NCBI GenBank assembly: GCA_036867785.1
Contig: CP145422.1
Coordinates: 186,001 to 250,000 of the forward strand
Origin: Plasmodiophora brassicae
Taxonomy: Eukaryota
DNA: 64,000 nucleotides
Direction of reading: 5' to 3'
The position numbers and the translations under genes were made by a program. Every line of letters starts with the position of its first letter. The stretch's first letter is position 1. Below, piece after piece: positions 28,701 to 31,700 of the stretch. Below the pieces are notes generated by a model. It worked only from the letters and a program-made list of their open reading frames with translations. It was not told the DNA's origin and did not search any database.

Positions 28701-31700
28701 AAACAAAATATGGTCGATATGGAAAACCATCGTCCGCTTTACAAGAGAGAAGAGATGCTTGAAAAATGATATAGTGACATCTTCAACACGATGCCGTTTA
28801 AAAGTGATGTGTACAAAAGTGACATTGTCAGATTGATCGTAGATTGGTTCGAACAAAGAGTCGACAATAAACACGGTCGGTTGGAGAACCGCAGTAAACG
28901 TGTCAACGTCATAGTATTCATCAACACCGCCAGCCGCCGGAGACCAACTCTGAAGAGACACCAACAACGACTTGGGCTGAATAGCACCTCCGGACATAAT
29001 GACTTCCTGTAGAGCGTTCGACATTTGAGTTCTGTCAAGCTCGTTGCAGATGTGACTATAAAGAGACGATCCCAAAACCGAAGATTTCCCGTTCGCTTCG
29101 ACAAGATCGATAAACGCAGGGGTGCATGCCAAAATGTTGGCATCTTCCACTCCAACGCGAACGGTTGCTGAAGGTATATCCTGCAGAATACCATCCGCTG
29201 GCACGTCAGAGGAGCTCTTGAATTCAGCAAGCGTCTTGTGCTCGTTCGCACTTGAGTTATGACCAAGCGCCGCCTCGAAAATGCTACCTGTTGCTACAGG
29301 GGAAATGAAAAACACAAGCCCAGCTAGAGAACCATCATTTTCTGTAAGCGGGGTCACCCAAATTTCGATGTCAATCACGAGACGACTTTCTCTGCAGACC
29401 CGTGCTGTCAGTAATGCATCAACTGTACAGATTAGCAAGGTAAGGCCGATGTGCTTACTTTTTCTCAAATGTGCACTTATACGACTCGACGTTTTTCGAA
29501 TCGAGAAATGACGTCGATCTCAGACAGTTCTTCACCAGAGACTTTATCTTGGGCCAGTGCTGCCGTGGAAAGATCTCGTGAACACGGCGACCAACCACAT
29601 TGCCAGAGTTCCACTGAGTTAACAGTGATACCTCAACATTCCACTGTACGATCTTTCGGTCGCGATTGACGATAAAATGCACAGATCTCTGAGGAGTCGG
29701 AGAAGGCCACACCTCCGTATCTTCGAGTTTCTCTAGTCCAAGCCGCCGTGAATCAGTTAACAGGAACCTCAAGTGTGCTCGAAGCTCTTCTTGAACGCGG
29801 CGCATGGAAACGAGTTCCGCGACTCGTTTGAATTCCCAAGCTCTTGCTGCGATTGCAAACCGATCCTGTGCCGAATGAGCAGCACGAACCCGGTACTCGT
29901 GAAGCCAGAGGGAAGGAACGGGCATATCTAATCGTCGTTTGGCATCCAGTACAACGAAGATGACTATAAACGTTGCAAAACCCGAAGCGGAGAGTGACGT
30001 GTCGAAACGCTGGAATCCTAGATCCTTGACGCAATCAGTAGATATACCGCTACTCGACATACATTGTGCCGAGGACGTGAACCACGACGTGCCGAAAGTA
30101 GCAGGATACTGAAATGCGAGCAGCAGTGAAAATGTGACCAGGTTGAAGCACCGCAGGAACATCCACACCTGCGGGCTCCTTGTTGGCCAAGCGAAAAGCG
30201 TAAAACCAGTGATAAGCAGTACAAGGTGAATCAAGTCGGCATTCGCACAAGCGGCAAGCAAAACGATTATAATCAGAACTGGCTCGGCGAAAGGCAAAAC
30301 CTGCAGAAGCCACGATTCAGGTTCGTTATGTAACCCGTCATTCAGCTCATAGACATTTGCCGGGCTTACTACCGCGCTCAAAGGTATTGAAACGTTTGGA
30401 TTCGACCCCCGTTCCGAGTTTGGAACTCGCCGATCAATAAAAGGAGCTCGCCTCCAGCACATAAGCCACAAAGCAATGTAAAAATAGCCAACTGATAAGG
30501 GGTCAGAGACTAATAAGGAAAGCCATAGTTGTACATCAGTGGCCAGACGAATCGAAGGAAACCCAAGCACATCCCAAGCATCAGGCCCAAGTGCCACAAA
30601 ACATCCCCACATTACGTAGGTAAAGACAACGATTTGCATAATGGGCCACGACCGCCGGATTGCAGGCTGAGACGAGAACTCGTAAATGGGGGCCCAAATC
30701 AGTGAAACGAGAACGGCAAAGATATTTCGCGTCAGCGCACAGGACAGAAGGAGAGCGAACGCTGCGATTTCTGAATCAATGTTTACAGGATAAGCACCAT
30801 CCACGACAAAACAAAGTGCTGATTCTATCCGCTTCCAACACGAAATGGAATAGGTCAGCAAAACCTGCTTGACATGAGATACCCGCCGAACTACAAGAGA
30901 TTCACGTTTCTCTTCTGAATGGCTCGATGAGGCGGACTCGCGTGTTGGGGAAGGCTCCAGAACGACAGCAGGCGCAGCCATGTCCGCACCGGGTTCCTGT
31001 ACATGCAAATCCAGCGTAGATGCGAACGAAGACATCCGCTGCAGGTACCGCTGGACATAGGCGAATACGAGGATGAGAATTTCGCCCTCAAACGAGTGAG
31101 CATCCAGGAGATTGCCAGATGAATCGACTCGAAACCCAAGCCAGACGATATGCGGGCCAAACCAACCAGGGGCAACCGCGCTTACGCCGAAAAGATATCG
31201 TACCGGAACGACAACGGAAACCAGTACAACTTCCGGCAGCCAGGCAGCTGAAAACCCGCCAGGCCGCAGCATGAATATCCCAGAGCAGACGACATATGAC
31301 AGTGAGACAGCAGAAGGGTGCATACAGAATGCAAATATTGGGAGTAGAACAGTGATTCTCGAGATGTGATTCGAGCAAGCCATGAGCCGTCTCGATCCCA
31401 GCCGGCAAATAAACAACTTCCAGGACCGTGCCTGAACTGCGGGATAAGTTCCGAAGTACTTAATGCGGAAGAACGAAACCGTAACAAAGAAGACAACAAG
31501 TGACGGGAGAAGACTAACAAACAAGTATTGTGTCGTGACATCAATCCGGGGCAGACCAATACCATCGAGTACCGGGTCAGTGGAAGCACCAGTGCCAAAC
31601 ACCCAGTTGAGCAGACGCAGTATGAGCTGATGAACAACATCGTATTGAACAGCATACTGAAGGAAGACAACAAAAGCAGTGTATGCTACTCCAATCGACC

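Follow-up and report, generated by a model that had tools for sequence, protein, structure and literature searches.

In a 64,000-nucleotide stretch of DNA from the clubroot pathogen Plasmodiophora brassicae (GenBank assembly GCA_036867785.1, contig CP145422.1, positions 186,001 to 250,000; hereafter the window, numbered from its first letter), we describe a minus-strand gene for a predicted PIEZO-family channel subunit of 2664 amino acids (aa) that carries, just before transmembrane helical unit 8 (THU8), a segment matching the PAS domain profile (PAS-A) and, behind it, a second globular segment that may share the PAS fold (PAS-B). PIEZO channels are mostly regarded as sensors of force alone, and the loop between the beam and THU8 is the least understood part of their gating. 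On balance we favor the reading that PAS-A is a bona fide PAS domain, that PAS-B is possibly another, and that together they form a gating-regulatory module in the loop preceding THU8. Within the protein databases and the literature searched, with other Phytomyxea and Rhizaria outside the search, this PAS-in-PIEZO architecture is unique.

An earlier note on this DNA, made from the letters and their translations, had proposed a PIEZO channel with two tandem PAS domains directly after the beam helix, and all the peptide strings that it quoted are present on the minus strand in the translations of the open reading frames (ORFs). Read from stop to stop, this strand holds two long ORFs at the locus, 29455–34356 (1633 aa) and 27450–29519 (689 aa). 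Transcript contigs from four public runs belonging to four studies (X1, X3, X6, and X10), which were picked out of 24 runs, 20 of them containing at least half of the sampled words, were placed on positions 25200–34800 of the window, and showed zero differences from its letters. Because spliced joints are present in them, the contigs derive from transcripts. The intron that the earlier note had placed inside PAS-A (intron 1, Table 1), which lies between the two ORFs, was removed in the contigs of every run, as were eight additional introns of 53–58 nucleotides (nt), all reading CT..AC on the plus strand and thus GT..AG on the minus strand. In X3, X6, and X10, one contig bridges both ORFs with at least 255 letters on each side of the intron 1 joint; in X1, the shorter side comprises 30 letters. 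The exons were joined by their coordinates via the nine RNA-supported joints and the frame was taken from the first ATG, giving a reading frame that is uninterrupted for 2664 codons. The 1633-aa and 689-aa ORFs are one gene, which answers the question, raised in the earlier note, of whether they are separate genes.

The opposite view, that the two ORFs are separate genes as annotated, or that the main product is a truncated protein of 1603 aa, draws on an alternative acceptor of intron 1 at 29405 (joint 29404 to 29459, a 54-nt intron), which shifts the frame into a stop after 11 codons. The public model PBRA_006922 ends 11 residues past this acceptor, and in X1 the contig with the alternative joint has a depth of 27.5, compared with 52.8 for the 67-nt joint. 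However, the alternative joint was found in only one of the four runs, whereas the 67-nt joint was found in all four and single contigs span both ORFs in three of them. Moreover, only in the joined frame is the PIEZO complete, including THU8, THU9, anchor, and cap, which counts against the two-gene view. We regard this view as almost certainly wrong.

The public annotation of the locus follows the minor splice form. At 99.7% identity, the N-terminal ORF matches the record "hypothetical protein PBRA_006922 [Plasmodiophora brassicae]". This public model of 1603 aa consists of aa 1–1592 of the spliced model plus 11 residues, and it stops inside PAS-A because it uses the alternative acceptor. Three amino-acid differences between PBRA_006922 and the window protein (positions 320, 515, and 851) suggest that this record and the window derive from different isolates or assemblies. 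A separate model, PBRA_006923 (566 aa), corresponds to aa 2102–2664 and has 3 extra residues compared with the RNA-supported model. The intervening residues 1594–2101 (508 aa), which contain the end of PAS-A, PAS-B, and THU8, were present in no protein found by word-based or phmmer protein searches. With the gene split into two "hypothetical proteins" separated by this gap, database surveys of PIEZO architectures miss the protein. Judged by titles and the starts of abstracts, no paper on a PAS-PIEZO fusion or on a Plasmodiophora PIEZO was found, although tables supplementing genome and transcriptome studies of P. brassicae may mention the loci; the words "PAS" and "ankyrin" do not occur in the passages of PMC3681921 available. 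The possibility that the architecture had already been annotated, which the earlier note had allowed for, thus found no record in the protein searches or the literature.

The domain content of the spliced product makes it a predicted PIEZO-family channel subunit with near certainty. That typical PIEZO helices resume behind the putative PAS segments, as the earlier note had read, was borne out by a match to Pfam THU_Piezo1 at aa 1880–2002 (69.1 bits against a cutoff of 27.2, covering profile positions 1–119 of 121). The start of this unit aligns with mouse Piezo1 1680–1754 and Piezo2 1980–2109, and the unit was assigned as THU8 because THU9 and the anchor directly follow it. The Piezo_THU9_anchor profile was covered at positions 3–238 of 238, scored on the protein P0006, which maps to aa 2102–2664 of the spliced model with 99.5% identity. 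As in animal PIEZOs, the order after THU8 is THU9 and anchor, outer helix, cap, inner helix, and C-terminal domain, and the PFEW motif is present, PF(X2)E(X6)W being described as an absolutely conserved PIEZO motif in the passages of PMC3681921. The C-terminus of an insect Piezo matched positions 25865–25728 in tblastn, the alignment being collinear to its last residues. Word-based protein searches returned one insect Piezo and the two partial models of P. brassicae itself only, and PIEZO chains accounted for 14 of 17 PDB sequence matches (best E 1.6e-12). The N-terminal blade (first 1600 aa) gave no match to the Pfam blade models, its sequence being too divergent. A crude hydropathy scan called 36 segments, 26 of them before the beam-like helix and one a false call in PAS-A; for comparison, the PIEZO reference pattern has nine THUs with about 38 transmembrane helices in all, and the beam follows THU7.

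The spliced model places the insert directly before THU8. Residues 1437–1879 hold, in order, a charged helix of ~56 aa, an 18-residue linker, PAS-A, a 34-aa linker, PAS-B, and ~84 residues leading into THU8. Animal PIEZO1 and PIEZO2 (e.g. 5Z10 and 6KG7) have the same overall order of blade THUs, long charged helix, cytoplasmic loop of ~380 aa, and THU8. From its position and a helix prediction of low confidence, the charged helix is beam-like, and by analogy with animal PIEZO topology the loop would lie on the cytoplasmic side. In the passages of PMC8924262 and PMC13510524 available, the order before THU8 of PIEZO2 is beam, 44-aa plug linker, latch, intrinsically disordered region 3 (IDR3), clasp, and IDR2, and these loop parts tune conductance and velocity sensitivity in animals, where the regulatory role of the loop is known. 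The C-terminal end of the animal beam runs into the plug and latch at the lateral portals of the pore (passages of PMC8924262). Unlike the animal proteins, the P. brassicae PIEZO gave no match to plug, latch, or clasp in PDB sequence searches; its loop instead has a PAS domain 18 aa past the helix and a second globular segment, its N-terminal blade lies outside the Pfam blade models, and an ankyrin insert sits in another loop. The claim that PAS domains come right after the beam helix therefore held in so far as PAS-A begins ~18 residues past a beam-like helix; the beam itself had no match among the solved PIEZOs.

PAS-A (aa 1517–1625) very probably adopts a PAS fold, as judged by profile comparisons. 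The Pfam, NCBIfam, PDB, and AlphaFold2 (AF2) runs on PAS-A used its unspliced exon-1 half. This half matched Pfam PAS (E 0.0012), PAS_4 (E 0.0023), and PAS_9 (E 0.012) on the same residues and in the first half of each profile (positions about 9–69), as well as NCBIfam sensory_box (E 0.0099). An independent PAS profile, much weaker than that of Pfam, was built from E. coli K-12, in which PF00989 gave 14 matches; the 12 near-complete domains, PAS domains of sensor kinases, were aligned, the two partial ones (L014 and L015) were dropped, and the profile was used in hmmsearch. It matched spliced PAS-A end to end with 22.7 bits (profile positions 12–110), the exon-1 half scoring 10.2 bits and the exon-2 half 12.9 bits on adjoining parts of the profile. 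None of 2000 shuffled PAS-A sequences reached 22.7 bits (maximum 12.4), and among 103 other windows from this protein the highest score was 1.7 bits. With hhalign, spliced PAS-A aligned over 102 columns (probability 78.6, E 1.7e-5), and in global mode it gave z 10.2, its score being equaled or exceeded by none of 50 shuffles. All eight PDB matches of the exon-1 half, six to phytochrome B and two to a bacterial sensor protein, were sub-threshold (E 0.26–1), those to phytochrome B falling in two adjacent regions, the C-terminal PAS repeats. AF2, run on this half without an alignment, predicted strand, strand, one helix, and strand (mean predicted local distance difference test score (pLDDT) 41.0, beam included), with no structure called where further helices would lie; a complete PAS fold has an antiparallel sheet of five strands with helices on its flanks.

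Chance resemblance of both segments to PAS, in a loop that is really a divergent latch and clasp region, would be in keeping with Pfam and NCBIfam matches that all fall under the curated cutoffs and with PDB matches all at E 0.26 or more. We consider this very improbable: no shuffle attained the score of spliced PAS-A, to which the exon halves contribute additively from adjoining profile parts, the global hhalign z stands at 10.2, and four PAS profiles (three from Pfam and sensory_box from NCBIfam) converge on the same residues.

For PAS-B (aa ~1660–1796), the prospects of a PAS fold appear evenly divided. Pfam PAS matched it at profile positions 6–68 with E 0.072, only when a 287-aa piece was scanned. 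A feature search of the ESM Atlas returned PAS families in 13 of the 30 nearest clusters (in 13–100% of their members), the remaining 17 being unnamed, at scores of 0.95–0.96, which shuffled proteins attain about once in 100. Its AF2 model, of low confidence, runs strand, four helices, two strands, an order counted in favor of PAS. By eye, we take its C-terminal stretch to resemble the usual H–I hairpin pattern of PAS domains. The tandem arrangement put forward in the earlier note thus stands for PAS-A, on profile, shuffle, and hhalign evidence, while its second member fails the profile tests and keeps the weak Pfam match and the Atlas neighbors. Two consecutive segments of ~110–140 aa also occur in tandem PAS-A/PAS-B proteins such as phytochromes (C-terminal repeats), bHLH-PAS factors, and sensor kinases; these differ from the present case, in which the module lies inside a polytopic channel and PAS-B is unproven and without similarity to PAS-A. 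Similarity between the two segments, sought as a sign of tandem duplication, was not found. Two matches of PAS-B to a plant toxin chain in the PDB (E 1.3) were judged meaningless. A 184-aa open frame (28739–29293, minus strand) overlaps PAS-B in a second frame; its Atlas recognition score was low (1175) with no usable match, and it is probably a chance ORF.

Several results weigh against a PAS-bearing regulatory loop in this PIEZO. The exon-1 half of PAS-A, only half a domain, scored 19.3 bits, under the Pfam PAS cutoff of 22.6. A 163-aa piece holding PAS-B had no PAS match in Pfam or NCBIfam; PAS-B scored –1.3 bits on the 12-domain E. coli profile, which is weak evidence from a weak profile, aligned over only 29 columns in hhalign (probability 1.2), and in global hhalign gave z –0.24, 30 of 50 shuffles scoring as high or higher. 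Comparison of PAS-A with PAS-B gave z –1.1 (938 of 1000 shuffles scored as high or higher). The AF2 model of PAS-B, made from the single sequence, has a pLDDT of 32.3 and is unusable. In the beam region, AF2 without an alignment predicted three consecutive helices at low confidence (mean pLDDT 41), and a PDB sequence search with aa 1101–1592, which include the beam-like helix, returned no hits, solved PIEZOs included; the hydropathy scan does not fix how many helices precede this helix or how many THUs the protein has. Matches of the insert to the PDB were at chance level (E 0.11 or more). A phmmer search with aa 1594–1880 against 1.84 billion representatives found no homologues, so that conservation, by which function is usually recognized, cannot be demonstrated for the insert.

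If PAS-A is what it appears to be, the loop that in animals holds plug, latch, IDR3, clasp, and IDR2 would carry a PAS domain followed by a globular segment of ~140 aa, perhaps also of PAS fold. The distance of 18 residues from the beam-like helix, taken with the end of the animal beam at the lateral portals, would place the module under the central region of the channel, where its three copies could meet. Regulation of gating, by a cytoplasmic module that the beam would hold beneath the pore region, would be its likeliest role and the most parsimonious one. That the PAS module modulates gating is a proposition that we hold to be balanced either way. A mechanistic analogy, not one of family membership, is offered by the KCNH (EAG/ERG/ELK) potassium channels, in which gating is tuned by a cytoplasmic PAS domain built into the channel. 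The KCNH channels are voltage-gated tetramers and not mechanically gated trimers. They belong to an unrelated channel family, and their PAS domain is N-terminal, whereas that of the P. brassicae PIEZO is internal. For hERG, the abstract of PMC3174182 describes the eag domain as critical for slow deactivation. Like the eag/PAS domain in KCNH gating, the module of P. brassicae might act via contacts within or between subunits. A bound ligand would be possible and not required. PAS domains of eukaryotic channels can work without a ligand.

Many PAS domains bind cofactors, and the PAS pair might instead be a true sensor of a small molecule, redox state, oxygen, or light, with the ligand state passing via beam and latch to the pore of a polymodal chemo-mechanical channel. 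The earlier note had proposed such a coupling of mechanical gating to a chemical or redox sensor, for example in the sensing of host surfaces by zoospores. The match of PAS-A to PAS in profile, shuffle, and hhalign comparisons suits such a sensor, as does its seat in the loop by which animal PIEZOs control the lateral plug and latch. However, direct reading of the sequence found no cofactor signature, NCRFL, the cysteine motif of LOV-type domains, being absent. The nearest, sub-threshold PDB matches are to the C-terminal PAS repeats of phytochrome B, which are not known to be its chromophore-binding part, and the lack of homologues leaves no conserved pocket residues to be read. We therefore view a true sensor as unlikely. 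A version in which a tandem PAS that senses a ligand or redox state has taken the place of plug, latch, and clasp and is held by the beam below the lateral portals of the pore, so that a chemical signal sets mechanical sensitivity or conductance, for example when the zoospore meets or penetrates a root hair, seems to us doubtful.

The same PIEZO contains an ankyrin-repeat insert in a different loop. Two Pfam models matched aa 519–605 above their cutoffs, Ank_4 with 23.9 bits (cutoff 22.7) and Ank with 22.5 bits (21.1), and Ank_2 came just below its own (26.2 bits, cutoff 27.3). This module of about 2–3 repeats is the second foreign cytoplasmic module in the protein.

The insert before THU8 could also be lineage-specific filler in a tolerant loop, PAS-A having been captured for a structural or assembly role or for none, and PAS-B not being a PAS domain. 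In animals the corresponding loop varies greatly, the two paralogues having an IDR2 of 99 aa and of 239 aa with a similarity under 20%, and all IDR deletion mutants of animal PIEZO still conduct (passages of PMC8924262 and PMC13510524). No relatives of the insert were found among the 1.84 billion representatives, PAS-B fails the profile tests, and the ankyrin repeats are another foreign module in another loop. On the other hand, the frame is open over ~280 residues, the region is kept in the transcripts of all four runs, and PAS-A retains a full-length profile match, which argues against decay. We find the filler explanation improbable, and continue to prefer a regulatory module built around PAS-A.

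Table 1. Features of the PIEZO gene in the window (coordinates from the first letter of the window; aa numbering of the spliced model)
Feature	Coordinates	Strand	Remarks
Whole PIEZO coding region	25734..34236	-	10 exons, 2664 codons; ATG at 34236, stop codon 25736-25734
Ankyrin-repeat insert, aa 519-605	32422..32682	-	Pfam; between two groups of four hydrophobic helices
Beam-like charged helix, aa ~1443-1498	29743..29910	-	34% D/E/K/R; putative beam, named from position only
PAS-A exon-1 part, aa 1517-1592 plus two bases of codon 1593	29459..29688	-	Pfam/NCBIfam PAS matches
Intron 1, 67 nt, GT..AG	29392..29458	-	Within PAS-A; joins 1633-aa and 689-aa ORFs; skipped in 4/4 runs
PAS-A exon-2 part, aa 1593-1625	29295..29391	-	12.9 bits, PAS profile positions 84-110
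PAS-B candidate, aa ~1660-1796	28782..29192	-	PAS-like, unproven
THU8, aa 1880-2002	28164..28532	-	Pfam THU_Piezo1 (PF23188), E 4.7e-19
THU9 and anchor, aa 2132-2365, across five introns	26859..27776	-	Piezo_THU9_anchor (PF24874), E 2.6e-63
PF(X2)E(X6)W motif, aa 2285-2296	27119..27207	-	Regular expression; whole only across intron 27134-27186, RNA-supported joint
Cap, inner helix, and C-terminal domain, aa 2405-2656	25761..26683	-	Piezo_cap (PF12166), E 9e-51

The surroundings of the gene were also visible in the data. Joints reading GT..AG on the plus strand (25256–25328, 25451–25509, and 34660–34720) belong to neighboring plus-strand genes, one of which runs toward the PIEZO gene, meeting it at its 3' end, and has transcript contigs in common with it. 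The gene body (26000–34000) has a G+C content of 0.49–0.52, compared with about 0.6 in the flanks, and a strongly positive AT skew of the plus strand (up to 0.32), consistent with a T-rich coding strand, rich in hydrophobic codons, on the minus side.

In practical terms, a PIEZO of the clubroot pathogen has been mis-annotated as two "hypothetical proteins". A natural PIEZO whose loop ahead of THU8 carries a folded domain of the sensor type indicates that this loop can accept whole modules, and the P. brassicae protein provides a ready-made construct for asking how the region from beam to THU8 communicates with the pore. A ligand, should there be one, would give a PIEZO its first built-in chemical input.

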